NCBI GenBank assembly: GCA_965238275.1
Contig: OZ250186.1
Span: 256,001-320,000, forward strand
DNA from: Nitrosopumilus sp.
GTDB taxonomy: Archaea > Thermoproteota > Nitrososphaeria > Nitrososphaerales > Nitrosopumilaceae
Length of the DNA stretch: 64,000 bases
Direction: 5' to 3'
Under the pieces are notes generated by a model. It was given only the letters and a program-made list of their open reading frames with translations. It searched no databases and was not told the DNA's origin. How positions within the stretch are numbered: position 1 is the stretch's first letter; each line of letters begins with the position of its first letter. A program made the translations under genes and the position numbers. Below, in pieces: positions 2,519 to 63,990 of this stretch.

Positions 2519-3689
2519 AGACATAATCCGTAATTAGAAATTGTGCATATTTTCCTATATTGTGTAGGTTTTTGACTCCTACCCGATTGCTTCCCGGACT
2601 AGGAGAACCCTGAGGTTGGCAAATCCGCAAACGATGTCATTGATGGTGTCATATTTTTTCAGGCGGTTTCGGTAGACACCGCCCATTATGCGAAACCGTT
2701 TGACCCTGCGGATGGCGTGCTCCACATACACCCGTACCTTTGAGTGTTTTTTGTTGAATTCCTTCTGCTCGGGGGACAATTCTGCACCTTTTTGCTTCTT
2801 GTACGGCACTACGGCATCCCGGTCAGGAAACTCCTTGTTGATCCCCTGGTATCCGCCATCCAGGATCTCTCTGACCTTGATCCTTTTCTTGTCCTTGCTC
2901 CCGTCCTTGCGTGGAAGGTTGTCAGGGAATGTCGGGTGTTTCTTTTTGAATACTGCAAAGTCGTGGATCCTGCCCGGGGAATGCCGGGTCTTGTGAAGGA
3001 TGAGGCCGTCCGTGGCCGATGTGTACTGGACCTTGGACGTGTGCCTGTGTGCCTTGCCCGAGTAGTGGGACCGTTCCATGTCCTTGCGCCCGGGACGTTG
3101 TATCTGCTGCTCGGAGGCATCAATCAGGGCAGTCAGGCCCGGAATGATCTCCTCAAGATCGTCAAGCGTCTTGGTGGCCTTGATGCTGGCGTAGATCTTT
3201 GACGGAAGCGGAACGCACTGCCGGATCGACGGCTCCAGTGCCCCCATGCTGCGGGACACGCTAGCCTGGCCCACCTGAAACACCATGGCAAGAAGATCCT
3301 GTGTGGCGTATGTCCTGTAATAAAACAGGACCAGAAGAAACCTGTTTTTCAGATCCAGTTTCCACCTGCGTCCGGCACCAATGCCGCGCACCCTGCTTCT
3401 TTTGGAGAGTCGCTTTTGCTCTGCCCTGGGGTATTTTTTTGCCAGCCGCCCTGCCACCAAATTAAATTCGGAGACTGTCAGTCCAGTGCACCGGATGAAC
3501 AGTTTGGGCTTTTTTGCTAATTTGTCGTATAATGACATGCTTTGACATGGGCAATCAGAATAAAACACGGCTGACGTATAGTTTTGATCATCGGGTAAGT
3601 TCGAATTGACATGCAATTCCGTGCAATCAACCGGATTTGTCCTGCAATGCGTCCAATCGTGTGGTTATACCCAATTACGGATTATGTCT
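2519..3689 (-). mobile_element. IS5-family (ISL2/DDE_Tnp_4-type) insertion sequence
   Basis: 17-bp TIR AGACATAATCCGTAATT; 3-bp TSD CAG. Confidence 0.88.
2579..3616 (-). CDS. DDE_Tnp_4-type transposase (true start may be the ATG near 3538)
   Basis: IDASE, YSGK, DGGYQG and RVYVEHAIRRVK motifs. Confidence 0.88.
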   Translation of the reverse strand: MHVNSNLPDDQNYTSAVFYSDCPCQSMSLYDKLAKKPKLFIRCTGLTVSEFNLVAGRLAKKYPRAEQKRLSKRSRVRGIGAGRRWKLDLKNRFLLVLFYYRTYATQDLLAMVFQVGQASVSRSMGALEPSIRQCVPLPSKIYASIKATKTLDDLEEIIPGLTALIDASEQQIQRPGRKDMERSHYSGKAHRHTSKVQYTSATDGLILHKTRHSPGRIHDFAVFKKKHPTFPDNLPRKDGSKDKKRIKVREILDGGYQGINKEFPDRDAVVPYKKQKGAELSPEQKEFNKKHSKVRVYVEHAIRRVKRFRIMGGVYRNRLKKYDTINDIVCGFANLRVLLVREAIG

Positions 3690-16899: not shown

Positions 16900-18669
16900 G
16901 TAATTGTTTCGCTTTTTGAAGTACCCCGGATGGCCTAGCGGGCATCCATGGCGCCGGGAATAAATCTAATGATTTCGTGCTCGGGACGACAAAGCTAGAC
17001 TGTCGTGATCTAAATGTGAGTGGGTGCTAGTTCCTTCGAGATAGCAAATGAAGAAACCAGCACACCAGACATGCTTGGAGGTGGAGGAATTTAAGGCAAT
17101 ACACGAGCCCTCCTTACACTTACCACAAATCCTTCCTGATGCCGGGGCGTGCATGAAATCCGGATGCAGGTGCTGTCGGTTCTGGACAAGGGCACTTGGT
17201 GATACGATCGGCTTGACAGGCAAGATCTTGGAGGCTGCTGCCGCCGAAGTTGCAGGCAGGTCAGGCGCCAACTGCAAGGAGATCGAGGGACTGCAGGCAC
17301 TCGTCTCATCCCTCACCGAGGACAACAAGAGGTACGCCAAGGCCAACAGGGAGCTTAACGCCAAGGCCAACAGGATCAACATCCCCACCGTGACCAAGAA
17401 AAAGGCAGGCCCAAGGAAGGCCGGCAGGCCCAAGGGGCAAAAACCCACCATCAACTGCAGGCCAAAACGCGTCGACCGCGTCGAGGAGATCGACTGCAAG
17501 GAATGTCCCGACTGTGGCAACGACAATCTTTCGGACGTGACTGACAGGTACGATCGCATCGTGACTGTCATGCGCGTCATACTGGAAAACGTCAGGTACG
17601 TCATCAAGCGGCGCTGGTGCCGCGGGTGCAAAAAACAGGTCTCTGGAAGGGTTCCCGGCGCGGCAAAACACGCGCGCCGTTCATCAAACTTTGATGCGGC
17701 CATGACGTCCCTGAACATGAACGGTTTGTCGCATGCCAGGGCCGCAGAATTTGGCAGTGACGCGTGGGGGCACAAAATCTCGCGCCCGTCTGCATACCGC
17801 GGCAAGATCAGGCAGGCAGAGCGCATGGCACCGGAGCGTGATTCTGTAAGAAAGCGCGTGTTAGAGGCGCCACACCTGAACGCAGACGAATTCCACTGGC
17901 CGTTGGGCGGCAAACGCGGCTACGGGATAGTGGCCCTGGCAAAAGACGCCTGCCTCGTGGAGGTGACCGGCTCGCGGGGCATCAAGACGCTTTGCCACAC
18001 ACTCCCGGACTACAAGGGAACCATAACGCAGGACTCGTATGCAGGATGGCTCCACGTGGGATCGTGCCGCCAGATGTGCGTGTGGCACCAGGAACGCCTG
18101 GTGCAAAAGGACGTCCTGACCAACCCCAAAGGTGACGTTCCAAAGTTTCTGGACAGGCTGTCGGCAATCCACGATAAGATTTATCGCGCATCCAGAATCG
18201 AGGACGGGCACACGAGGATCGTCGCGGCCCACTGCATAGACGCGGAGCTGCGCGGGCTGATGAACGAACCGTTTGCAGACGATGGGCACGGCACCATCGC
18301 CAGACACAAGAAGAGGAACCCCCGGGAGGGATACTTTATGACCACCTGCCTGCACGTGGACGGCATCGAGCCGGACAACAACGCAGTGGAGAGGGTCAAC
18401 CGGAGGTTCGTGGCCATAAGGAGCGACGGGGGCGGAAACCGCTCCCAGAAGGGCATGGATGCCAACTCGATCCTGTTCACGCTGCTGGCAACTGACAGGA
18501 TCAGCGGAAACAGCTTCTTTAATCACTTGGTCCACTCGTCCTCTGGAGACAGTTGAGGCATCGTCTTACGGCACGCGCGGTGCATCACGGGAAAAAAGAT
18601 TCCACGGCAAGGGAAAGGCTGCACCTGCTCCACTGTTAGGCAGGCCACTTCAAAAAGCGAAACTGTTAC
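16900..18669 (+). mobile_element. IS66-family element nested in the ISH3 element
   Basis: GTAA...TTAC ends, ~23-bp TIR, 8-bp TSD AAGGCGGG. Confidence 0.9.
17048..18556 (+). CDS. IS66-family transposase
   Basis: CPDCG/CRGC zinc finger; ADE, QDSY and DNNAVER motifs. Confidence 0.88.
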   Translation: MKKPAHQTCLEVEEFKAIHEPSLHLPQILPDAGACMKSGCRCCRFWTRALGDTIGLTGKILEAAAAEVAGRSGANCKEIEGLQALVSSLTEDNKRYAKANRELNAKANRINIPTVTKKKAGPRKAGRPKGQKPTINCRPKRVDRVEEIDCKECPDCGNDNLSDVTDRYDRIVTVMRVILENVRYVIKRRWCRGCKKQVSGRVPGAAKHARRSSNFDAAMTSLNMNGLSHARAAEFGSDAWGHKISRPSAYRGKIRQAERMAPERDSVRKRVLEAPHLNADEFHWPLGGKRGYGIVALAKDACLVEVTGSRGIKTLCHTLPDYKGTITQDSYAGWLHVGSCRQMCVWHQERLVQKDVLTNPKGDVPKFLDRLSAIHDKIYRASRIEDGHTRIVAAHCIDAELRGLMNEPFADDGHGTIARHKKRNPREGYFMTTCLHVDGIEPDNNAVERVNRRFVAIRSDGGGNRSQKGMDANSILFTLLATDRISGNSFFNHLVHSSSGDS

Positions 18670-20848: not shown

Positions 20849-20939
20849 AAATCATTATCTATAGCTAAGATCAAAAATTTGTGTGGATTAATTCAGTTTT
20901 TTTGTTTACATGTATGATCAATTCCAGATTGAATCATGT

Positions 20940-21883
20940 CGTTCGGTAATACGTAGAGACGGCCTGGCACATGTCCGAAAATGTCCGATAATATTCAGAA
21001 ACAAACAGTCTGCGCTTTCCTTGAAGTCAGCATTCTTCCACGGCGTTCAGGTACGGTGAGTCCTTGAGGAAATACATGATCTTGATGTTTTTGGTCGTGC
21101 AAAGGAATTCTTTTACTCATTTTGAGTGGTGCTGCGGGGCCCGGTCTACCGTCACCGCTACCTTGCCAAAGTGCCCGTGCATATTCTTGAGGTATCTGAC
21201 AAACGTGAACCCGTCAAATTTCTCATGCGTCCGGAAGAACTGCCTGCCGTCCTGAGAAATCGAGCCGTACACTGTGATCCTCTTGTGGCTACCGGTGTAC
21301 GGTACGCTTATGGAATGACCCACCCGGGACCAGTACTTGCGGCCGACTATCACGTCGTGTATGAAAATTGCCTCGTCCTTCATTAATACGGTGAAACCAT
21401 CCTTTTCTAGGCGTGAAACGTGCTTGTTGAAGCAATATTTCCAGTTCCGCACCACCCTCTTGTTGGCCCTGTTGATGTGGACCTTGCGCGGTACCTTTGG
21501 AGACAGGCCGTGCTGGCGCATGATTTTTCGGACGTACGTGATGTGAAGTTTTACGCCAGTGTCCTTGCGTATGCTCTGCTGCAGTTCCGAGGGTGTAATT
21601 CCAAGGCAGGGTACCCTTGCAATTATTCCATCAATGACATCTCGCGGAATTCTTCTGGGTCGTCCTCATCGGGGAAGATCACGGAGGCCTTGCAGGCCCC
21701 CGTCGTCGAAGCGGCGCAACCAGTTACAGACCCAGCTTGGGCTACGTCTCTGGATGTCGGTAACCTAGTCCACGGTCATGTTGCGCACGCGAACCATGCG
21801 TACGTGACCATCCGGATTCTGACCCTGTAATCTTTTTCTTTTCTGTACGCCTTTTCGAGTTATTCCAGTTTGGCGTCGTCCAT
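20940..21883 (-). pseudogene. Degenerate IS630-family transposase
   Basis: HTH plus DEAIF and DRAPQH fragments broken by stops/frameshifts; homologous to 41085-41745. Confidence 0.75.
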
Positions 21884-22160
21884 ATCTCACTGAAGGGAGC
21901 CTGATCTAGAAACTTTGCGGTTGGCTAGGGTATTTGCTCAAAAACTTTTGCGCGTCAGTATACACTCTCGGAATACAGAGTGGTATCTAAAAATAGAATG
22001 GTTCATCCATCTTGATGTGTGCTCAGTGTTGATTATTCCGGCACGTATCCTATCTTGGATTTGATCCAGTTTTCGCTTACCTTTCCTTCCTTATAGGCAC
22101 GTATGCAGCCTGTTTTCGTTATTCCGTTTTTTTCAGCTTCCTCACATCCCTTGGCCCATT

Positions 22161-23748: not shown

Positions 23749-25345
23749 AGAGAATATGCGTAATCCCCCTGTCCACATCGATAAATTTAGATCAGGCACG
23801 ATCGTGTCTCACATCAAATGCCAGACTCGCCTGATCAGATCATATACAAGTTGCAGCAGGAAAACAAAAGACTAAAAAATATTCTAAAGCAGAAAGACAA
23901 AAAGCTGGAGCAGAAAGACAAAAAGCTGGAGCAGGAAAACAAAAGCCTAAAAAATATTCTAAAGCAGAAAGACAAAAAGCTGGAGCAGAAAGACAAAAAG
24001 CTGGAGCAGGAAAACAAAAGCCTAAAAAATATTCTAAAGCAGAAAGACAAAAAGCTGGAGCAGAAAGACAGGGATCTGGGCCTTGAGCGCGGCCTGTGGA
24101 AGAGCAGGGACGATGGCTGGAACCCCGGCAAGGGGCCCGCGCTGCATCTGCTAGAGGTGCTAGACGACATAATACGCGACGGGGACAAGCTCCGCCATGC
24201 CACGCTGGCAGACGGGGAACAGTTCCGGTACATGCTGGAGCGGGCCAAGGTGTTTCTGACGCATTCGGGCCAGATGCCGCTGTTCTGCGATAACGCATCC
24301 CGGGCCTCCGATCCCGGAAACCGGTGCAAGCTGCACCTGAGGCACGCGCTGCTCATGGCGCTGATGCACAAAAAGGAAAACATCACGCAGGGAACGCTTG
24401 CCGCGTTCTTCGGGATAGACCAGTCCACCGTGTCCCGGTACTTTCCTGTGATGGACGCGATGCTGGCAGGAATACTTCCGACGGCAGACAACATATCCGA
24501 GGAGGTAGCTGCTGCCCCGACCAGGGAAGATTTCAAGAAGATCGTGCCAGGATCGGATGGGGGCGAGATCTTCATAGACGGCACGCACTGCCCCATACAG
24601 CGCCCGTCCGTAAAGTCAGTCCGGCGCATGAAATACTCCGGCAAGAAGAAAAAGTTTACCAACAATACCAACGTGTACACCAACCGGAACGGGGTGGTGA
24701 TCGGCATATCAAAAAGCACCGTCGGGTCAGTCGGCGACATCACGCTGCTCAAGGAACGCCCCATGCCGTTTGGAAAGTGGGAGAAGGCGATGCACGATCC
24801 GGACCTGCCAGAATCAGACAGGTGCCACCCATTCGTCGACCGCGGCTACCAGGGAATCGCAGACCACCTGCCCGGCACCACGCCGGAGATCCCGCACAAG
24901 AAGACCAGGGACACGCCGCTGACGCCGGAGCAAAAAAAGCACAACCACAGGATCAACTCCACCCGGGTGTTGGTGGAGCACACGATAGGCAGGCTCAAGC
25001 GCTACGCGCGCCTCACCGACCCGTACGACGGCAACGCAGCCGGGTTCAACAGGGAGTTCAACGTGATCACAGGGCTGGTAAACCTGAATCTTTTGTGGGA
25101 CTGCATGGAAAAGGGCCCGCCGCCACCGGGGCAGTGGAAGACGTCAGTAGACTGGGACAGGGCCTGCTCCCAAGCTCCGGTCAAGTAGAATTCAGGGCAC
25201 GATGAAGTGCTGCAAGGCTGCGCACGTCATTTTGGATTTTGGGGTGAACGGACTTGCCACATGCCAGACACGAGTAGTTTTAGGCCGTATTTTTCCGGTT
25301 TTTTATGACCGAGTTGGCGAAATGGGCGGATTACGCATATCTTCT
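23749..25345 (+). mobile_element. IS5-family element copy 2, tandem to copy 1; transposase 23818-25188
   Basis: Same TIRs; 3 bp from copy 1; truncates the IS481 transposase. Confidence 0.9.
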
Positions 25346-26311
25346 AATGCCATGAGTGGGGTCTCGCGGTTGGCAATGTCCAGCGAAAAGTGCAGGCGTC
25401 TCTCGTTATAGTATTCGACGTACTCTGCCAGGCTCCTGCGGTGACATATTTCATCTTCAAGCGTCCTGTGAAACCGCTCAAGCTTGCCGTTGGTCTGGGG
25501 GTGGTACGGCCTGGAGTTTATCAGCCCTATGCTCAGGTCCAGCAGCTCTGCCTCAAAGGTGGTGGGCTGCCATGATCCGGAAGGCGCCTTCATTCTCTTG
25601 CCGTCCTTCCCCTTCACGTACCTGCCTGTAGCGCCCACAAAGCATGAGCCGTTGTCTGACAGGATGGTGGCAGGAACGCCGAACTGCCTGACTGCATCCC
25701 GGAGAACCTTCACAACGTTCTCGGACGTGGCCTCAGTAAACAGACCCACCCCGGTCACGCATCTTGACGCGTCGTCCAGAAAGGTCACCAGATTGAGCCC
25801 TTTCATGCGCGGATCCTTCATGACATGCCAGTCTGTGTGCCACATGGAGTTGGAATGCCTTCGTTCGTAGCGAACCCACTTTCGTTTTTTGGACTTTGCC
25901 GCAGACGAAACCACCAGGCCGTTCTCCTTCATTATCCGGTATACCCTCTGGTAACCTATATCATGATTTACCTGCAGGTTCATGGCAGTGCGCAGCACGC
26001 CTTGCGGTTCCCGTCTGCATTCATCCAGCACAAGTCGTACTTCCTCTGGGGATGGTGGCCGTGCAGGTCGGCCGGGACGCTGCGGAGTGTCGGCAGTACG
26101 GAACACGGCCCGCAGCCTGCGGACATGTCTTGGCGTCACGCCGATCTCTGCTGCCACTTCCGTCGTGCCCCTGCCCTTGCCGAGCTGTGCCATCGCGTAT
26201 CTGATGGACTTTGCCGTCAGTCGTTTTGCCATCGTTTTTCTTGATCGGTAAAGGACAAGGTAATCCTTTACGTAACGCTTGATCTTAGGCGGACCTAATT
26301 TTCGTACAACA
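25346..26311 (-). mobile_element. IS481-family element, 3'-truncated (transposase likely starts at 26232)
   Basis: rve motifs WHTD, SDNG and PQTNGKLER; TGT left end at 26311. Confidence 0.8.
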
Positions 26312-26558
26312 GAGCTCCCAGCACAGGGCAACAAAGATACGCGAACTGGTTGAGAGAACAGACGGCCTGGAGATAGTCTTTCTGCCGACTGCAACCCCTG
26401 ACCTGAGCGCCATAGAGACGTACTGGAGGGATCTCAAACGGGCAGTGCTTGACGTGCCGTACACCAGCCTGCGGATGCTTCGCGAGGCGATCACCAGGTA
26501 CACGAGGTACAAAAAATCGAATCTGGTAGTCGAGAATTTCCTGTACAGGGCCATCTAG
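26312..26558 (+). pseudogene. C-terminal fragment of an IS630-family transposase
   Basis: Reads ...FLPTATPDLSAIETYWRDLKR... Confidence 0.65.
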
Positions 26559-42361: not shown

Positions 42362-45300
42362 GTAAGAGGTCGCCTTTGCGAAGCGATTCCGTGCCTGATC
42401 TGTTCCGATTAATTACCAACTGAGCTACGTTTTTGACCATAAATGCCCGATTAATTGCACGTTATCAACACGGTCCTCAGGCAGGGTGGTTTTCGGATCA
42501 AGGCTCTTCCGGTTGGATCTTTTGCGCCGCATTTTCCGGCAGGCGCTGCGTGCCCAAAAGCTTTATGGATCATGAACTTTGTTTCCTAATTATCCCCAGC
42601 CACGCCCAACAGATCCAGAATCAGGTCGGACCAGCTGAATTTGAACACATTATCAAGCATCTTCAATAGAAAACCACATTGATCAGAGAGGTGTGCAGAC
42701 AGTCAGGTTATCGCCATGACTGAAAACACATCCTCTCCAGACAAAACGGGCACGCATGAGGCTAAAAAATCTTTCAAATCCAAAGAACGCCGGTTCCAGT
42801 ACGATGACCGCAGGTACATAGACCGCGGCCAGTTGTGGACGCTCCAGATAAGCCCGGAGATCCTGACTCAGGGGGTCGAGAAGCTAAACTGCGGGAAGGT
42901 AGGCCGCCCGTACGTATTTTCAAACGCGTGCTTTGCAGCAGCATCCCTGTTCAAAAACGCCACCGGCATAAGGTACAGGCAGCTCCAGGGTCTGGCAGAG
43001 ACGATAGTCGGCAAGGAAAACGCGCCCACGTACTCGGCGTTCCAGAAGAGGATGACCAAGCTTGGCTGCACTGTTGCAGACAATGATGATGGTAGCGGCA
43101 CGGCTTCTGCGTGGTTCTCAGACGGCGGCACCCGGGCCGAGATCAAGCTGTTTGCCTTCGACTCCACTGGACTCAAGCCCACAAACCGCGGCGACTGGAT
43201 GACAGAAAAGTGGGGGACCAGGCGGGGCTTCATAAAGCTGCACGTCGGGGTGGATGCCAAAACCAAAAAGATCTACGCCGTGGCCATAACCGACGACAAG
43301 TGCGGGGACTCTCCGCAGTTTGAGGAACTGGTGGGGCAGGCCCTTGCAAATGCAAAAAAATCACCAAACTCAGACACTTCTGCAGGCACCAAGGCGGCAG
43401 CCGACGGCGCGTACGACACCCAGAAGATCCGCAGGTACTGCGACGAGCAGGGAATCGAGCCGCTGATTCCCGTCCGCATCGACTTTGCCGGAAAGGCGAA
43501 CGGGTGCATGCCCCGCAAGGAGGCAGGATTCAGGCAGCTGGGGGACCTGGACTGCATGGACAAGACGGCAGAACGCAAGTTTGCAGGCCTCACGCGCGAA
43601 CAAAAGAGGGAATTCCAGAAGGCGTGGCGCAGGGAGTCAGGGTACAACGACCGGTGGTCAGTCGAGATTGTATTTTCCACGTTCAAGCGGGTGTTGGGCG
43701 AGTGCATAAGCGCGCGCAAGTGGGAGAACGTCAAGGCCGAGATATACGGAAAGGTGCAGCTGTACAACCAGATGATCGATACTGCAATCGACAACGGGTA
43801 CGGCACGCCAAGGATCGTGCAAGCCTACAAGCCCGGCCCAAGGACTGCAAGGGAAGGGGGCAAGACGACGACGTAGGCAGAATTGCACAGACGAGTATCT
43901 GTGTCGAGCGTAATTAGGAAACAGAGTTGGATCATGCCTTCCCGTGTTATGGCGTGGTGCCTGTAATCGACTTGGAAAAGATTGACTGGGACTCCGTAAC
44001 CGACACCAAGTCCCTCTTCGAATCCGTCTTGGACATGCTCAAATCCAAGGACGAGGAGAGCATGGCACTGAGAAAAGACATCGAGCAGCTGAAGGAGGAG
44101 GCAGAGGCCTTCTCAGGGGAACATGCGATGCTGACGGAGATGGATGCCAGGATCAAACTGCTGGAAGAAGAGAATGTGCAAAAGGACTCCGAGATAGAGA
44201 AGCTGCGGGCAGAAAACGCCGCCCTCCTACAGGGATGCGACGTCTCGCAGGCAGTCATGGACAGGATAGCCCGCCTGGAACAGCAGGCATCAGAGCATGC
44301 CTCTCAGTTAAGGGAGGCGCGCGCGGCCAACTCGGCGCTGGCAGCCGAGAATCTGGGCATCAAAAGCCGCCGCTCCAAGAAGCGGCTCCGGGAATCACCC
44401 GGGCCTGCACCAGACCCGTTCAGAAAGGTCGTCTGCCTGCGCACCGGCCGTGATCCTCCCCCGATATCCGAAAAAAAGATAGTCGACATGTCCGCCTGCC
44501 CGCACGGCCACGCCCTATCGACAGAACCCACCGAGGTAACCTTCCGGGTAGTCGAGGAGATCATCGACGGGAAACTGACCGGCATCCAGTATACCATTAT
44601 TCGCAGGTACTGCAGGGAATGCGGCAGGCAGTTTGCCCCCGAGATCCCGGGAGTCGTCCCCGGTGGGCGGTTCGGCGCCAGCCTGACGTGCCTTGAGACG
44701 ACGATGAGGATGTACGGCATTCCCTACGAAATCATCCGCAAGCTGATCAACATAATCCACCACACAAACCTTGCAAAGTCGACTGTCATCGGCCACGTGG
44801 ATGCCGTGACAGGATCCCTCCACCCGCTCTACGAGGAGATGCTCGAGGATATGTTCTTCTCAGGGCATGTCTTTGGCGACGAGACCAGCTGGAGGGTAGC
44901 CGGTGTGCTGTACTGGCTGTGGATACTAGTCGGCTCCGACTCGGCTGTCTTTTACGTGGACAAGCGCCGGGGAGGAGACGTGCTGGAGGCCCTGCTTGGA
45001 GGGTACGCAGGCCACGTCACCTCTGATTCACACGCTGCGTGGAACCGCATCGGCAGGACCCACCAAAAGTGCCACTACCACTACCTCCGCGAGATCCTCC
45101 GCACCCTGACCATGAAAAACCCGGGGCCAGAATTCAAAAAGTTTGCCAAGGCCCTAAAGGGGATAATCATCGATTCCTGGCACGCAGAGAAGGGACTCAA
45201 CCCGCATGACGACAAGGCCGCGCGAAACCTCAAGGTGCGCAACCTCCTGGCCCGGGTAAGGCGCCTGATGTCTGGCAGCTACACCGAACCCCACTGCAAG

Positions 45301-45916
45301 CGGTTTGTCAAGCGGCTGCGGCGCGAGATCACCCACCTGTTCCCATTCATCCGCCTCAACACAAAGTGCCATAACAACGACGCCGAGCGCCCCCTGCGGC
45401 CCAGCGTCTCATCCCGGAATGTCTCAGGCGGCAGCAAGAGCCTTGCCGGCGCATACAACCACGCCGTCCTGGCCAGCATCCGCGAGACGTGCAGGATGCG
45501 CGGCGTCAACCCGCACGACTTTTTGGTAGACTACATGCGAGGTATCGTCGAAAGGATACCGGCAACAGCAGCAGCGGCAGCAACAACTGCATAAATCCTG
45601 CAAAATCCATCCATGGCTGCCCTGCATGTCCTGCGCGACTCCCGTCGCACCGGTTGCCTGACACGTATCAGGCCGCCGTACCGGCCCTCCACCAGATTCG
45701 GGCACAACGCACCGCCCCGGCAGCACCAAAAAAGATCCACTTCGCAAGTCCGATCACCGGATCGGCCAAAACGCAGCTCAGCCGAGCCTCACCCCGCCCG
45801 GAAAAAATCCTGAATAATGCCAATCAAATGGGCATTTACGGCCCAAAACGTAGCTCAGTTGGTAATTAATCGGGGCAGATCAGGCACGAAATCGCTTCGC
45901 AAAGGCGACCTCTTAC
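42362..45916 (+). mobile_element. IS66-family element with ~85-bp TIRs; transposase 43927-45594
   Basis: GTAAGAGGTCGCCTTTGCGAAGCG... inverted at both ends; GDETSW, TSD-S-H and HNNDAER motifs; no target duplication seen. Confidence 0.85.
42575..43928 (+). mobile_element. IS5-family element nested in the IS66 left end; transposase 42716-43876
   Basis: TIR AACT(T/C)TGTTTCCTAATTA; 8-bp TSD GGATCATG; DSTG, ADGAYD and GY..RWSVE motifs. Confidence 0.88.
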
Positions 45917-49928: not shown

Positions 49929-51564
49929 GTATCTGTGTAGTTTTTTGATCAAATGTTGAACTCCATATCTACAATTAGAAAATCCGCGTCTGTCTAATTT
50001 TTTTAAAACTATTTTTGATCACTTGATCGAGTTTTTCTCTCCGTCCTAATTTTTAGATCATTGTTGCCCACGGTTTGCATATGTCTGATGATAATTCCGA
50101 GTCAAGGATTGCAGAACTGGAGGAAAAAGTGGGTGTGATGGCAGAGCAGATGGCCGAAAAAGACCGGCAGATGGCCGAAAAAGACCGGCATATGGCCAAA
50201 CTCGCTGATCTTTACGCTGCCGCCCTCAAACAGATCCAGGATCTCACGGCAGAGTTGCAGGAGGCAAAGGGCATCATATCGGCTGCCGTTGCAAGGAGCA
50301 TCGGCGCAAAACCGGACAAAAAGACCGGCAGTACCCGGCGCCGCGCAAAGGGCAAGGGCAAGGGCAAGCCAAGTGACCACAAACGCACGGGCCTTGCGCG
50401 TCCTGAAAGAATAGACGCAGAGGAAACAGCAGATCCGCACACGTGCGGCAACTGCGGCAGCTCCGACCTCTCAGAATGTGTGTCCACGTACACAAAGGTG
50501 GTAAGGGAGGCTGCCAAGGTGGAACTAGAGCACATCAAGGTGACAGTAAAGAGAAGGCGCTGCAGGAACTGCAAGAAGACCGTGTCTGGCATGACTCCGC
50601 TGGCACTGCCAAACTCCAGGTACGGGATCAACTTTATGATAATGATGGTCATCCTCAGGCTGCACGGCATGTCAGACCTCAGGATATGCCAGATTGTCCT
50701 GATAACGTACTCTGCAAGGATCACCGAATCTGCCATAAACCGCATGGTGTGCAGGATGGCACGGGAGCTTGGGCCGCTGTACGAGAAGATCAAGGAGGAG
50801 GTGAGGCGCTCGCCTGCGATAAACGGGGACGAGTCCGTCTGGCGCGTCAACGGCACCAACTACTGGCTGTGGGCGGTGGTAACAAAGTACGCCGTAATCT
50901 ACGAGGTACACCGCCGCAGGAACTCGAAGGTTCCAAAAAAGATGCTTGGCAGGGACTATTCGGGATGCGTGACGTCTGACTCGTGGGGAGCGTGGAACGT
51001 CATAGGAGCCATGCACCAAAAGTGCCACCTGCATTACGTCCGGGACGTCAAGGACACCCTGAAATACAAAAATCCCGGCCAGGACTACCGGCGGCACGCA
51101 AGGACGCTGCGCAGCATACTGTGGGACTCGCACGTCGACGGTGCCATTCTGGGAGGAGCAGACGCGCTTGCCACAAAGAAGAGGCTGGACCGTCGCATCG
51201 CGTCCCTGGTAGGCAGGCTCGAGAAGGACCGCGACTGCAAGCACTGCAACAGGATGCGCAAGAGGCTGGTGCGGGAAAGGGATCACCTGTTTGCGTTTCT
51301 GGAGACAGACGATGTCGAATACCACAACAACCGGGCAGAGCGGGCCATCAGGCCGTACGTCATCCTTCGCAAGAACAGCAACGGGAGCAGGTCAAAGAAG
51401 GGCGCAGACGCTATTGCCATACTGATGAGCATCAAGCAGACATGCAAGGCAAGGGGCGATGATCTTTGCACGGTCCTGCGCGAGGGTCTGGTTCTATGTC
51501 AAAAAAATACATAGTTTCTTGTAGACCTGGAATTCAACATTTGATCAAAAAACTACACAGTTAC
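49929..51564 (+). mobile_element. IS66-family element; transposase 50075-51514
   Basis: ~35-bp TIR; 8-bp TSD GAATTTTG; GDES and HNNRAER motifs. Confidence 0.9.
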
Positions 51565-60130: not shown

Positions 60131-60631
60131 GTGATGATTTCTGACTGGTTCCAGAGGGTGGGAAGTTCTGTTCCCAGGGGGTTCTCGCGATACTATGTCC
60201 TGGAACTGCTCAAGACAAAACCGCACACCGGAAAGGAGATAATCGACCATGCAGCAGAGCAGAGCAACGGGATGTGGAAGCCCTCGCCGGGGCTTGTCTA
60301 TCCGCTGCTAGGCAGGCTGCTTGAGGAGAAACTGATCGAGGAGACGCCCGACGGAAGATACCAGGTTACGGCAAGGGGCATGGAGACTGCAGGAGACATA
60401 GACAAGATAAACGAGACTGTCAGGAGGCAGCTGGACGTGCTGCTGAGGCTGGGAAACGTCGGAAGGTTTGTGGCAATGGATCTTCTCGAGAGGATATCAA
60501 TGATGGGTGCGGTTCTAAGCGCCAACATGGAAAGCATCACCGACGAGGAAAAGGAGAGGTACAGGGAATTCCTCAGGGACGAGCTTGACAAGATTGACGG
60601 CAAGGATGCAAAGGAGATCAAGGTAGAGTAG
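60131..60631 (+). CDS. PadR-family transcriptional regulator
   Basis: WKPSPGLVYPLL..L...LI...Y..T..G motif. Confidence 0.88.
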   Translation: MMISDWFQRVGSSVPRGFSRYYVLELLKTKPHTGKEIIDHAAEQSNGMWKPSPGLVYPLLGRLLEEKLIEETPDGRYQVTARGMETAGDIDKINETVRRQLDVLLRLGNVGRFVAMDLLERISMMGAVLSANMESITDEEKERYREFLRDELDKIDGKDAKEIKVE

Positions 60632-60710
60632 ACGGTCCTTTTTTCATCAGACTGTCAACAATGTCATATACTGTGTTGCTCACCACATTCTGATGGACAG
60701 GAAGATCCTA

Positions 60711-62221
60711 TAGTGAAAAGCGAAAGTTCGTGCAATTTTTTGAGATCCTTTTTAAGAAAATAAATCTCAACTACAGGTATGATTGTCAGTAAAATCATCA
60801 AGATAACACAATCTCGGGAACTGTCACGCAAGATCGTGAAATGCTCCCGGGAAACAGACATCGTTTACGACATGACAATCATGATGAAACTTGCACATCC
60901 CGGGATCACACAGTTTGATGTCAACAACCTGATAACAGGATGGCGCAGGGAATTCAACCTGACCAGCAGCGTCTACATGCATGAGGCCGCCTCAAAACAG
61001 GCTTTCCAGGCGGCAGTCAAATTCCGCAAGGCAAACCGGCTCAAGCACAACAAGCGCATCTGGCGCAAGAAACAGATCAAGCTGGGGAAAAAGAAGACGT
61101 ACAAGCACAATCGGTGGACCGAGCCGTCCAGCCTGATGAGGCGCGGCAGGAAAACAACCAGGCTGCGCTCGCTGAATTCACGCGGAAAGCCAAAACTGCG
61201 GGACGACGGCACCGTATTTCTGCCCGGACTCGGGGAAGCAAGGCCACGCACGAAGGTTCCAGAAGGCAGGCTCGTGTCATTCCAGATGATTGACACCACA
61301 GGCAAGGTCACGCGTAAGACCAAGGATGGTGATCGCGAATTCAAACTGCATTTGCAGATAGAAGTCCCAGACCCCGAACCCGCGACAGGTGGTGGTGGCC
61401 GCGGATGCAAGGCAGGGCTGGATCTTGGAGTCAGGCACCTTGCGGCAGTCGCAGACGAGCATGGGAATGAAAAACTGCACAATGTCCCCGGAGGCTGCAA
61501 GAGGCATGACGGCGACAGGATTGATCAGCTGAAATCGCTTAGATCAAGATGCCAGGCAGGCTCCAGAAGATGGAAAGAGATCGGCCGCAAGGTAACGCAT
61601 GAATTGAAAAAGATATCAAACAGGCAAAAACACAACGAGGCCGACATTGCCAGGCGGATAACAAAAGGACTGTCCGTATTGTTCTTGGAAGACCTGGATT
61701 TGACCAGGATGAGGAGATCCAACGGGGCGGCTTCAAAGACGGGGTTGAACCGCGAGATGGCCTATTCCAGAATGGGCGAGTTCAGGATCCAGCTTGAATG
61801 GCAGATGAAAAAGAAAGGCGGAATTTCAAGACGCGTGGAATCCGCACATACAAGCCAGAGATGCGCTGCCTGCGGGGTAGTGGACAAAAAGTCCAGGAAC
61901 GGTGAATCATTTGTCTGCGTCTCATGCGGATGGTGCCACCATGCCGACAAGAACGCGGCAAAAAACATTTTGGATAATGACTGTCTCCATACGGAGGAGA
62001 CTGGCGGCCAAGCCCACGGGAATCGTGGAGGCACCATTGCAGGTGTCGAGGTCGTCACAAGGCGCGAGGATCACGGATCGGATGGTTCTGGAATGAACAA
62101 TTCGACAGGTCGGCTTGGACCCGACAACGACGACAATATTGGAAGGTCTGACAGAGCGCCGGAAAGAGCATCAGGACATGCTACAGAGAGATCTGTTTGC
62201 ACGAATTTTCGCTCGCCGCTA
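60711..62221 (+). mobile_element. Non-autonomous tnpB element with imperfect 25-bp TIRs and a TA duplication at a CTAG site
   Basis: Left end TAGTGAAAAGCGAAAGTTCGTGCAA; right end (revcomp) TAGCGGCGAGCGAAAATTCGTGCAA; excision restores the carbonic anhydrase frame. Confidence 0.75.
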
Positions 62222-62224
62222 TAG
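60779..62224 (+). CDS. tnpB: RNA-guided endonuclease TnpB
   Basis: RuvC GLDLG / FLEDL / HADKNAA; TSQRCAACG..CVSCG zinc ribbon. Confidence 0.9.
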   Translation: MIVSKIIKITQSRELSRKIVKCSRETDIVYDMTIMMKLAHPGITQFDVNNLITGWRREFNLTSSVYMHEAASKQAFQAAVKFRKANRLKHNKRIWRKKQIKLGKKKTYKHNRWTEPSSLMRRGRKTTRLRSLNSRGKPKLRDDGTVFLPGLGEARPRTKVPEGRLVSFQMIDTTGKVTRKTKDGDREFKLHLQIEVPDPEPATGGGGRGCKAGLDLGVRHLAAVADEHGNEKLHNVPGGCKRHDGDRIDQLKSLRSRCQAGSRRWKEIGRKVTHELKKISNRQKHNEADIARRITKGLSVLFLEDLDLTRMRRSNGAASKTGLNREMAYSRMGEFRIQLEWQMKKKGGISRRVESAHTSQRCAACGVVDKKSRNGESFVCVSCGWCHHADKNAAKNILDNDCLHTEETGGQAHGNRGGTIAGVEVVTRREDHGSDGSGMNNSTGRLGPDNDDNIGRSDRAPERASGHATERSVCTNFRSPL

Positions 62225-63057
62225 TAGCCGTAATAATTGCAATTCTTGCAGTATTGGTGATAGATGTGATGACCTCGATGCTTCAGTCTGAAGAGGCAGG
62301 AACCGGCATGCAGACAGGACAGGAGACGGCCGGACTCCAATGGACAAACGTCCATCCCAACGTACAGACGACCTTCAACGAGGATGCGGCAATGCCTGCC
62401 ATTGAATCCGGCGCATTCATTCATCCGTTTGCAGTGGTTATCGGGAACTGCCATATTGGAGAGATGGTCTTTGTCGCACCCACTGCAGTATGCAGGGGGG
62501 ACGAGGGGACGCCGATTCGCGTGGGGGACGGATCCAACATGCAGGACGGGGTGGTGATCCACGCACTAGGGACAGTCGAGGACGGACGCAACATCGATGA
62601 CCGCCGGTTCTCGTCTGAGGGTACCAGGCTGAAAGGGGACGATCCGGCGTTTGCAGACGGCTACGCCGTCTTTGTCGGGGACAACACGAGCCTTGCGCAT
62701 GGCGCCATGATTCACGGACCGGCATGGATTGGAGACAACACGTTTGTCGGGATGGAGGCGCTCGTGTTTAATGCAAGGATCGGAGACGGGGTTGCAGTGG
62801 GGGTGTCTGCCACCGTTACAGGCGGCGTCGAGATAGCCGACGGCAGGTTCGTGCCGCCGGGCGCGGTGATCACCACGCAGGAACAGGCAGATTCGCTGCC
62901 CGAGCGTGTCGGGAGCGCGTACGAGGCCACAAACAGCGCGATAATTCACGTCAACCGGCAGCTTGCAGAGGGGTACGGCCTTTTGGACATTGAGAGGTTG
63001 ATAGAGCAGCGCGAAAAGGCCATGGAAGAGGGAATGTTGGAGACATCCCTACCGTAA
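62197..63057 (+). CDS. Gamma-class carbonic anhydrase with signal/anchor; native start (ATG 60693) separated by the tnpB element
   Basis: Hexapeptide repeats; RGDEG, QDGVVIH and LAHGAMIHGP motifs. Confidence 0.85.
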   Translation: MHEFSLAAIVAVIIAILAVLVIDVMTSMLQSEEAGTGMQTGQETAGLQWTNVHPNVQTTFNEDAAMPAIESGAFIHPFAVVIGNCHIGEMVFVAPTAVCRGDEGTPIRVGDGSNMQDGVVIHALGTVEDGRNIDDRRFSSEGTRLKGDDPAFADGYAVFVGDNTSLAHGAMIHGPAWIGDNTFVGMEALVFNARIGDGVAVGVSATVTGGVEIADGRFVPPGAVITTQEQADSLPERVGSAYEATNSAIIHVNRQLAEGYGLLDIERLIEQREKAMEEGMLETSLP

Positions 63058-63129
63058 GCCTTTGCCTAAAAGTCACACAGCCAGGATACGCCCTTAAAGT
63101 CATAAATAACTCCATGGCAAACCCAATCT

Positions 63130-63990
63130 GTGAAAACGCTGCGCAGGATGCTCAAGGATGACGGACCGCTGGTCATTCCAGGCGTCTATGACGCAATGGG
63201 TGCAAAGATTGCAGAGAAGGTCGGGTTTGGGGCGATGTTCCAGACCGGGTACGGCACGTCTGCAACCCTGTTTGGAATGCCAGACTACGGGTTCATCGGG
63301 GCAGCAGAGACTGCAGACAATGCCAGGAGGATATGCAGCGCGGTATCGGTTCCGGTAATCGTGGATTCTGACACCGGTTACGGCAACGCGCTGAGTGTGT
63401 GGAAGCTTGTAAGGGAGCTGGAGTCGGCCGGGGCATCGGGGATCTTTTTGGAGGATCAGAGATGGCCCAAGAGGTGCGGGCACATGCAGGGAAAGGAGGT
63501 CATACCGCAGGAGGAGTACACGGAGAAGCTCGGAGCCGCCATTGACGCAAGGCAGAGCAGGGACTTTGTCATAGTGGCAAGGACCGACGCGCGTGCCACC
63601 GACGGGCTTGATGCTGCAATCCAGCGCGGACTGGAAAACAAGAAGACGGGCGCCGATGCCATCTTCATCGAGGCACCAAGGTCGTATGACGAGATGAAGA
63701 GGATTGGAAGGGAGATCAAGGCGCCGCTTGTTGCAAACATGATCGAGGGAGGGGCGACGCCGCTGCGGCAGGCCCAGGAACTCTCCGAGATTGGATTCAA
63801 GATAGTTCTGTATCCGCTGTCCGTGCTGTTTGCAAGCACGTTTGCTGCCATGGGCGTCCTAAAGGAGCTCATGGAGACGGGGACCACCGGGAAGTTCAGG
63901 AGAAAGATGGTGGGCTTTGACCAGTTCAACGACATGGTGGATCTTTCAAAATTCAAGGACATGGAACAGAGATACGGATTTAAAGAATAA
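63130..63990 (+). CDS. Isocitrate lyase/PEP mutase family protein (methylisocitrate lyase-like)
   Basis: DSDTGYG, EDQ..PKRCGH and ARTDA motifs. Confidence 0.88.
   Translation: MKTLRRMLKDDGPLVIPGVYDAMGAKIAEKVGFGAMFQTGYGTSATLFGMPDYGFIGAAETADNARRICSAVSVPVIVDSDTGYGNALSVWKLVRELESAGASGIFLEDQRWPKRCGHMQGKEVIPQEEYTEKLGAAIDARQSRDFVIVARTDARATDGLDAAIQRGLENKKTGADAIFIEAPRSYDEMKRIGREIKAPLVANMIEGGATPLRQAQELSEIGFKIVLYPLSVLFASTFAAMGVLKELMETGTTGKFRRKMVGFDQFNDMVDLSKFKDMEQRYGFKE

Follow-up and report, generated by a model that had tools for sequence, protein, structure and literature searches.

The window analysed here, a stretch of 64,000 nucleotides of the Nitrosopumilus sp. genome (assembly GCA_965238275.1, contig OZ250186.1, positions 256,001 to 320,000), carries near its right end an inserted element of 1511 bp (window 60711-62221) whose only gene is a tnpB and which splits a gamma-carbonic-anhydrase-like gene. 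The element is flanked on both sides by the dinucleotide TA (left copy 60709..60710, right copy 62222..62223) and is bounded by terminal inverted repeats (TIRs), the left of which, TAGTGAAAAGCGAAAGTTCGTGCAA, occupies 60711..60735 on the plus strand, while the right, which reads TAGCGGCGAGCGAAAATTCGTGCAA as its reverse complement, occupies 62197..62221 on the minus strand. From left to right the junctions read ...ATGGACAGGAAGATCC-TA-[TAGTGAAAAGCGAAAGTTCGTGCAA ... TTGCACGAATTTTCGCTCGCCGCTA]-TA-GTAGCC..., with the host codons ATG GAC AGG AAG ATC C preceding TA-TAGTGAAAAGCGAAAGTTCGTGCAA on the left and TTGCACGAATTTTCGCTCGCCGCTA-TA-GTAGCCGTAATA forming the right end. A scan of the element for open reading frames (ORFs) and Pfam domains found no DDE_3 transposase of its own between the TIRs; the element is non-autonomous, because tnpB is the sole gene that they enclose. 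As set out below, the evidence supports placing it in the IS630 family, as a non-autonomous element whose cargo is an RNA-guided nuclease module consisting of tnpB and an omegaRNA-like scaffold.

The TIRs of a single copy are modest evidence for its ends: 20 of the 25 terminal nucleotides are complementary, and although a repeat search of the window element ranked this pair first (28 nt, 82%), the same search also returned an unrelated 28-nt pair at 79%, which places the TIR of any one copy within chance. What decides the ends is homology bounded by identical termini in about 22 copies within the same genome. The host genome (G000) is a GC-rich single contig of 2.217 Mb that is 99.9% complete, and the window element as a BLAST query gave 35 matches in it at 66-100% identity. 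The roughly 22 copies show 80-100% identity, many of them being 96-98% identical; both ends are present in 21, a further copy is interrupted by 5.9 kb of other, nested insertion sequences (ISs), and truncated copies and solo ends also occur. In every copy the homology begins at ...C|TATAG on the left and stops at ...GCTATA|N on the right, the flanks being unrelated, and the left TIR is conserved across 24 left ends. At 1720532 a sequence resembling a left end, with G before it, loses the similarity after 11 nt and was not counted as an end. An earlier note on this DNA had described an intact tnpB with the catalytic residues D-E-D inside 25-nt imperfect TIRs with TA on both sides, and this arrangement is seen in the window and in the approximately 22 copies.

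That the TA is a target-site duplication (TSD) of two nucleotides follows from sites at which the element is absent. In a congener (G017), an orthologous K+ channel gene reads GTCACGCTGAC-CA-CCATAGGATACGGCGAC and encodes the uninterrupted TLTTIGYGD, whereas in the host genome the same site is filled, GTCACGCTGAC-[TA..element..TA]-CAATAGGGTACGGCGAC; the flanks of the empty site are separated by exactly 2 nt of host DNA, which gives the length of the duplication. The right half of the split channel gene matches Pfam Ion_trans_2 (positions 39-78 of 79); its left half has no Pfam match, and the junction was settled by alignment with the orthologue. Two empty paralogues of another site, ATATTC-AA-CGCACACG, compare with the filled ATATTC-[TA...TA]-CGCACACG, and since the C found before the left TA is also present in the empty sites, orthologous and paralogous alike, it is host DNA and not part of the element. 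The expectation that other copies would share common ends and TA duplications thus agrees with the 21 two-ended copies and with the 2 nt seen at the empty sites. The coding potential of excised junctions does not discriminate between duplication lengths: frames of at least 120 aa were obtained in 13, 11 and 14 of 21 cases with 0, 2 and 4 nt left, respectively, which is uninformative in a GC-rich genome.

At the window locus itself, the 5' fragment of the interrupted gene (60693..60710, plus strand; ATG GAC AGG AAG ATC CTA, encoding MDRKIL) was recognized from the N-termini of homologues, and its 3' part (62224..63057, plus strand; VAVIIAIL...) from Pfam Hexapep repeats. In-silico excision joins the two as MDRKIL|VAVIIAILAV, and hexapeptide-repeat, gamma-carbonic-anhydrase-like homologues begin MDKRTVVAIVII, MDRRNAAMAVLAV, MDAKTVIIAVIIAV and similarly, as the earlier note had anticipated in proposing that excision restores a start resembling MDRKILVAV. 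The protein has 969 homologues at E<=1e-20, several of which are named carbonic anhydrase at source and whose source names point to Nitrososphaeria; among 40 relatives of the genus no orthologue of the gene was found, only two weak matches, and at the locus corresponding to window 60131-63990 the congener G017 has a PadR-like gene followed directly by a phosphoenolpyruvate (PEP)-mutase/isocitrate-lyase-like gene, from which it follows that the carbonic-anhydrase-like gene is either a lineage-specific gain or has been lost elsewhere. Classical IS630 elements prefer CTAG targets, and CTAG is indeed the target in the window copy; it is not the general target of this element, however, as only 10 of the 24 right ends in the host genome have G directly behind the TA, the others having C (9), A (4) and T (1), and this part of the earlier account has to be given up.

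The ORF within the element (60779-62224) encodes 481 aa and is recognized by the Pfam models OrfB_IS605 (45.8 bits, cut-off 30.5) and Cas12f1-like_TNB (60 bits, cut-off 26.3), and the ISDra2 TnpB structures 8H1J and 8EXA align to its residues 172-399. Its motifs GLDLG, LEDLD and HADKN match the targets' own motifs in two alignments, one with an AI-designed nuclease and one with a chain labelled 'Transposase', and we take them to be the sites of the RuvC catalytic residues. By Pfam and structure alignment the tnpB core of about 400 aa (60779..61978, plus strand) comprises the wedge and recognition (WED/REC) regions, the RuvC-I aspartate, the RuvC-II glutamate, a CxxC..CxxC zinc finger and the RuvC-III aspartate, and it is followed by an open-frame tail (61979..62224, plus strand) that overlaps the RNA scaffold described below and whose TAG stop codon is made of the right TA and the flanking G. 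Purifying selection acts on the TnpB ORF, in whose core the ratio of nonsynonymous to synonymous divergence (dN/dS) is 0.15-0.42 among copies. The ORF is at least 442 aa long in 16 of the 21 two-ended copies and broken in five, and the D/E/D residues are kept in 16/16 aligned intact copies. In the tail, taken as the last ~75 codons, dN/dS is 0.48-1.12 while dS is depressed, a combination that points to constraint on the nucleotides and not on the protein, and in the G017 relatives the tail region contains stops and non-triplet indels. The cargo looks functional, and RNA-guided cleavage by TnpB that depends on a target-adjacent motif (TAM) is hinted at indirectly, by the C on the left flank.

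These data also bear on whether the copies might be relics without mobility of their own, multiplied by segmental duplication or recombination, with a tnpB that is decaying or domesticated. The five broken ORFs among the two-ended copies would suit such an account, as would the several solo ends and truncated copies and the one mosaic of subfamilies (copy 951041-952545, in which the core differs from the window copy by a dS of 0.84 and the tail by a dS of 0.018). Segmental duplication, on the other hand, would hardly give flanks that differ from copy to copy and meet the TIRs precisely at TA, nor insertions that interrupt genes and an orthologous site that is empty in G017, and a relic would not be expected to hold a tnpB core under purifying selection; we regard this account as extremely improbable.

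The nucleotide constraint in the tail coincides with a conserved structured RNA of ~235 nt (61983..62216, plus strand), which is omegaRNA-like, begins just past the RuvC-III motif and runs into the right TIR, the GCTC of which is taken into the last helix. It was defined in an alignment of the 3' regions of 12 sequences, namely the window element, four subfamilies from the host genome and seven G017 elements, for which RNAalifold gave a consensus of 54 pairs with compensatory double changes in 20. Within this consensus 97.4% of the cells are paired, compared with 31-46% when the partners are slid by 1-3 columns, the 20 pairs with double changes compare with 1-4 in the slid controls, and the covariation score was reached by 0/500 shuffles. 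No Rfam family corresponds to the scaffold, the sole match in that database being a chance hit to SECIS (E = 0.25). A guide-proximal hairpin seen by eye (ACAGAGAGATCTGT) has no common register across species and was excluded from the structure. The predicted fold has the appearance to be expected of an omegaRNA scaffold, and the earlier suggestion that an omegaRNA overlaps the non-conserved tail of the ORF is upheld both by the covariation and by the relaxed dN/dS of the tail. A transcript reading past the right end of the element would draw its guide from the right flank, with a predicted guide start at the right TA or at 62224.

The identity of the mobilizing enzyme is suggested by the TIRs. 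DDE_3 has 35 matches in the host genome, belonging to several IS630 subfamilies, and one of these, here called IS630x (G000:C1:1873255-1874349), is an intact, TA-flanked element of 1095 bp, inserted in a run of (GTA)n, that encodes a protein of 337 aa with DDE_3 (75 bits) and the helix-turn-helix (HTH) domains HTH_32, HTH_29 and HTH_23. Its TIR, TATAGTGGCGATCAAAAGTTCTTGCAA, is identical at 23/27 positions, TA included, to the consensus right TIR of the TnpB family, TATAGCGGCGAGCGAAAGTTCGTGCAA, leaving four mismatches, and the left TIR of the window element likewise resembles IS630x-type TIRs. In a genome-wide TIR scan IS630x was the best match apart from the ends of the TnpB elements themselves, and a control on the reversed genome gave no matches at <=5 mismatches, one at 6 and seven at 8. 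Three relatives of IS630x at ~70% identity have ends of the form TATACTGACG[AC][GT]CAAAAGT. The earlier note had looked to the IS630 transposases abundant in the window for action in trans, and of this the idea of a DDE partner stands, with the 23/27 TIR match of IS630x, and the location does not: IS630x lies 1.56 Mb from the window element, outside the window, whereas the IS630 material within the window consists of one of these three relatives, which is degenerate (20860..21962, plus strand; ~69% nucleotide identity, ends TATAGCTAAGATCAAAAATT / TATACTGACGCGCAAAAGTT, two TGA stops in the DDE_3 region), and otherwise of fragments or of subfamilies whose TIRs are unrelated.

TnpB is classically tied to the IS200/IS605 and IS607 families (PMC10691335, PMC13565253), and one could suppose that the element is of IS200/IS605 or IS607 type (IS1341-like) and owes its movement to a TnpA of the Y1 or serine type, the TA being a crossover or target dinucleotide and not a DDE duplication; a serine recombinase crossover dinucleotide would likewise show on both sides, and the motif conserved on the left flank only, described below, recalls the left-side target of IS605. 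The complete host genome, however, contains no match to the Y1 transposase PF01797 (controls positive in 6/14 reference genomes) and none to the serine recombinase PF00239 (controls positive in 12/14 reference genomes), and yet many copies are 96-98% identical; the symmetrical TIRs are moreover unlike those families and match those of an IS630 element, which makes this origin very unlikely. A different DDE transposase, either of another IS630 subfamily or IS5/ISL2-like (DDE_Tnp_4), is another candidate, given that the genome holds, besides its 35 DDE_3 matches, many DDE_Tnp_4, IS66 and rve elements, that TA also flanks a 1.26-kb IS630 family whose TIR bears a loose resemblance (TATACCAAGAAGGAAAAATTCATGCAA, 8 mismatches of 27), and that TnpB-ISL2 associations are in print, as the 2026 review lists them (PMC13565253). 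We nevertheless consider it unlikely, for the TIR scan put IS630x-type ends first (4-8 mismatches) with other families no better than the control, and in G017 the TIRs of the TnpB elements again follow those of that genome's IS630x-like elements.

Taken together, these observations make it probable, in our judgement, that the window element is a tnpB-only element in an IS630-type shell that is moved in trans by an IS630x-type DDE transposase. In such a scheme, IS630x or a close relative would bind the common TIRs and carry the element by cut-and-paste into TA sites, with a loose target taste of roughly T-N-S-TA-S-N-A; transcription through the right end would yield the scaffold joined to a guide that derives from the right flank; TnpB would cut the empty or re-sealed allele, in which the left flank ...C-TA is followed by the guide match; and recombination with an occupied copy of the chromosome would then restore the element. 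Several points weigh against this explanation. IS630x is single-copy; its TIR matches at 23/27 positions and is not identical, with the similarity, as judged by eye, ending at ~27 nt; and no IS630 transposase was found together with this TnpB inside one TIR pair in the host genome, in G017 or at the locus L088 described below, the lone copy that holds an IS630 gene (883619-891004) being a heap of nested ISs. Mobilization in trans by IS630x is something that we infer from sequence comparison rather than observe. As the 2026 review argues in its discussion of DDE elements (PMC13565253), a homing nuclease is less useful to cut-and-paste elements, whose excision already leaves a break. Lastly, a C confined to the left flank is not known for IS630 and could reflect an as yet unrecognised asymmetry in the transposase complex instead of a TAM.

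This asymmetry of the flanks was unexpected. The base 5' of the left TA (position 60708 in the window, where it is host-derived and directly precedes the duplication) is C at 24/24 left ends in the host genome, 7/7 in G017 and 1/1 at L088, and thus in 32/32 independent insertions from three genomes, and in the empty sites the C stands next to a single TA, whereas the mirror base at the right ends agrees in 11/32 (Fisher p = 6e-9). At 19 ends of transposase-bearing IS630x-type elements, read inward, the base is C in 10, G in 6, A in 2 and T in 1 (p = 3e-5 for the left ends against 10/19), and at 16 more IS630x-like solitary ends, picked by eye, it is C in 11, A in 3 and G in 2. Position -3 is T in 19/24 and position +3 is A in 13/24, a weaker and symmetrical preference that resembles a TNS-TA-SNA target choice by the transposase itself, but the one-sided, strict C is unaccounted for by a symmetric DDE mechanism. 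The explanation that we prefer, though at slightly less than even odds, is that the invariant left C is the footprint of the TnpB TAM, roughly N-C-T-A, of which the TSD would form part. C-T-A would then stand beside the guide match only in the empty site, the occupied right junction reading A-T-A or C-T-A-T-A, and only insertions whose left flank suits the nuclease would be kept, those without the C being lost. If this were true, an archaeal TnpB would be actively guarding or re-establishing the copies of a DDE transposon that moves by cut-and-paste; the system would then be the prokaryotic equivalent of Fanzor1 in Tc1/mariner elements, and a living intermediate between IS605-type TnpB and the eukaryotic Fanzors.

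The same architecture recurs in related genomes. The TnpB elements of G017 are ~1.49 kb long and encode proteins with 48-57% aa identity; TA flanks and TIRs beginning TATACTGACACGCAAAAGT... or TATAGTGACACGCCAAAGT... were present in 7/7 elements examined, and these TIRs resemble those of the six IS630x-like elements of that genome, the transposases of which are 60-64% identical. A further relative at 75% aa identity, L088 (OZ244651.1:126087-132284), was, outside the near relatives, the sole locus to come from a scan of genome contigs; it lies on a 2.46-Mb chromosome recorded as a Nitrosopumilus sp. metagenome-assembled genome and reads CATTC-TA-TAGTGAAGAGCATAAGTTCCTGCAA...CGCCGCTA-TA-AAG, with the same layout of TIR, TA and left C. 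The TnpB clade is narrow: 38 database proteins match at E<=1e-5, with identity falling from 46% to ~30%, and matches were obtained in 4/201 genomes at the level of the order and in 11/151 genomes and 3/27 genera at the level of the family. Family-profile scans of metagenome and viral contigs found no relatives.

TnpB in an IS630 shell, which the earlier note had proposed, is already on record. A 2023 survey in PNAS by Altae-Tran et al. (PMC10691335) describes TnpB branches tied to DDE transposases, with inverted repeats in all six groups; its large DDE-6 branch combines IS630 transposases with an HTH protein and symmetrical ends and includes viral (Klosneuvirinae) examples, and the survey also reports solo TnpBs whose ends match those of transposase-bearing elements, implying trans-mobilization. 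A 2026 review (PMC13565253) repeats the DDE associations, naming ISL2, IS630 and IS1031. Because the survey and the review describe IS630-linked TnpB, the kind is already known, and the window element is a new and unusually clean archaeal case of this association. As in DDE-6, as that branch is portrayed in the survey, TnpB lies within symmetrical IS630-type ends with its 3' end near the transposon end; unlike in DDE-6, transposase and TnpB occupy separate elements, there is no HTH gene inside, and the host is an archaeon. A composite of IS630 transposase, HTH protein and TnpB in the DDE-6 layout was found in none of the host genome, G017 and L088. The passages of the survey devoted to DDE-6 contain neither an asymmetry of a left-flank C nor a covariation-supported RNA, both of which are seen here.

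As in Fanzor1 in Tc1/mariner, a nuclease of the TnpB family sits inside a TA-duplicating DDE transposon, and for Fanzor1 the 5' TSD is proposed or shown, in the account of the 2026 review, to be part of the TAM while the 3' TSD marks the junction of scaffold and guide (PMC13565253); the window element differs from Fanzor1 in having a prokaryotic TnpB of ordinary size (core ~400 aa) on an archaeal chromosome, the likeness drawn here being one of architecture. It shares with the IS1341 group a single tnpB ORF, an omegaRNA-type 3' region, non-autonomy and multiple copies. As the review characterizes them, IS200/IS605 elements lack TIRs and TSDs alike and depend on a Y1 TnpA (PMC13565253), whereas the window element, unlike these and IS1341, has TIRs and a TA duplication in a genome without Y1, and it differs from IS607 in having TIRs in a genome without a serine recombinase. 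Subterminal hairpins are a further mark of IS200/IS605. With miniature inverted-repeat transposable elements (MITEs) derived from IS630 it has in common the lack of a transposase, the IS630-like TIRs, the TA duplication and a copy number above that of the autonomous partner, but, being 1.5 kb long and containing a protein gene under selection as well as a structured RNA, it is not a gutted remnant.

DDE-associated TnpBs have so far been known only from large-scale surveys, and a literature search, which gave the 2023 survey and the 2026 review, found no prokaryotic IS630-TnpB element that had been studied experimentally. The present family offers a compact and complete system, with 16 intact tnpB genes, a scaffold that ends in the TIR, a single candidate transposase, empty sites and a prediction of C-T-A as TAM. 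It bears on the shift of RNA-guided nucleases from IS605 (single-strand) and IS607 (serine) elements to TA-duplicating cut-and-paste transposons, as in Fanzor1, and on whether a cut-and-paste element gains from a homing nuclease at all.

Some further observations concern relatives and individual copies. More distant TnpB relatives occur in two other genera of the family, in G078 (L048, L052, L055, L058, L061, L064) and G280 (L095-L104), where they have another shell, with TIRs beginning GGGAATTATATAC (or ...TATCGTTAAGTAAACAC) and target duplications of 8 bp, among them AAGCTAAA, TATTTAAA and GCCGGCTG; the TnpB clade thus seems to ride several DDE-type transposons. The host genome has at least eight more TnpB-type (TNB) loci of other subfamilies (G000:C1:171837, 577394, 1130379, 1184189, 787096, 1933306, 501442 and 1815073), and the TNB locus at ~501200-501600 has an IS630x-like right end (TAAAGCAGCGAGAAAAAGTCCGTGCAC). 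Two copies of the TnpB element (G000:C1:827297-830106 and 2146754-2149881) carry a 1.3-kb element, 99.9% identical between them, at the same spot in the left TIR (TATAGTGAAAAGCGAAAG|...|AGTTCGTGCAA), which could reflect site-specific nesting or recombination; the idea that the two nested copies moved as one unit was dropped, as the evidence for it is not clean: the TnpB parts belong to different subfamilies despite the 99.9% identity of the nested element. A 78-nt remnant of the 3' end, with RNA scaffold and TIR, of another, diverged element of like kind (G000:C1:950963-951040) directly adjoins the right end of the mosaic copy at 951041-952545. The window itself is rich in ISs between positions 1 and 52000, many of them nested (for example 2582-3616, 17048-18553, 23818-25185, 25306-26394, 42716-45591 and 50075-51511), and these belong to IS5/ISL2-like (DDE_Tnp_4), IS66, IS3/IS481-like (rve), IS4/IS5 (DDE_Tnp_1) and IS630 types, the IS families of the window reaching 12-32 copies genome-wide.

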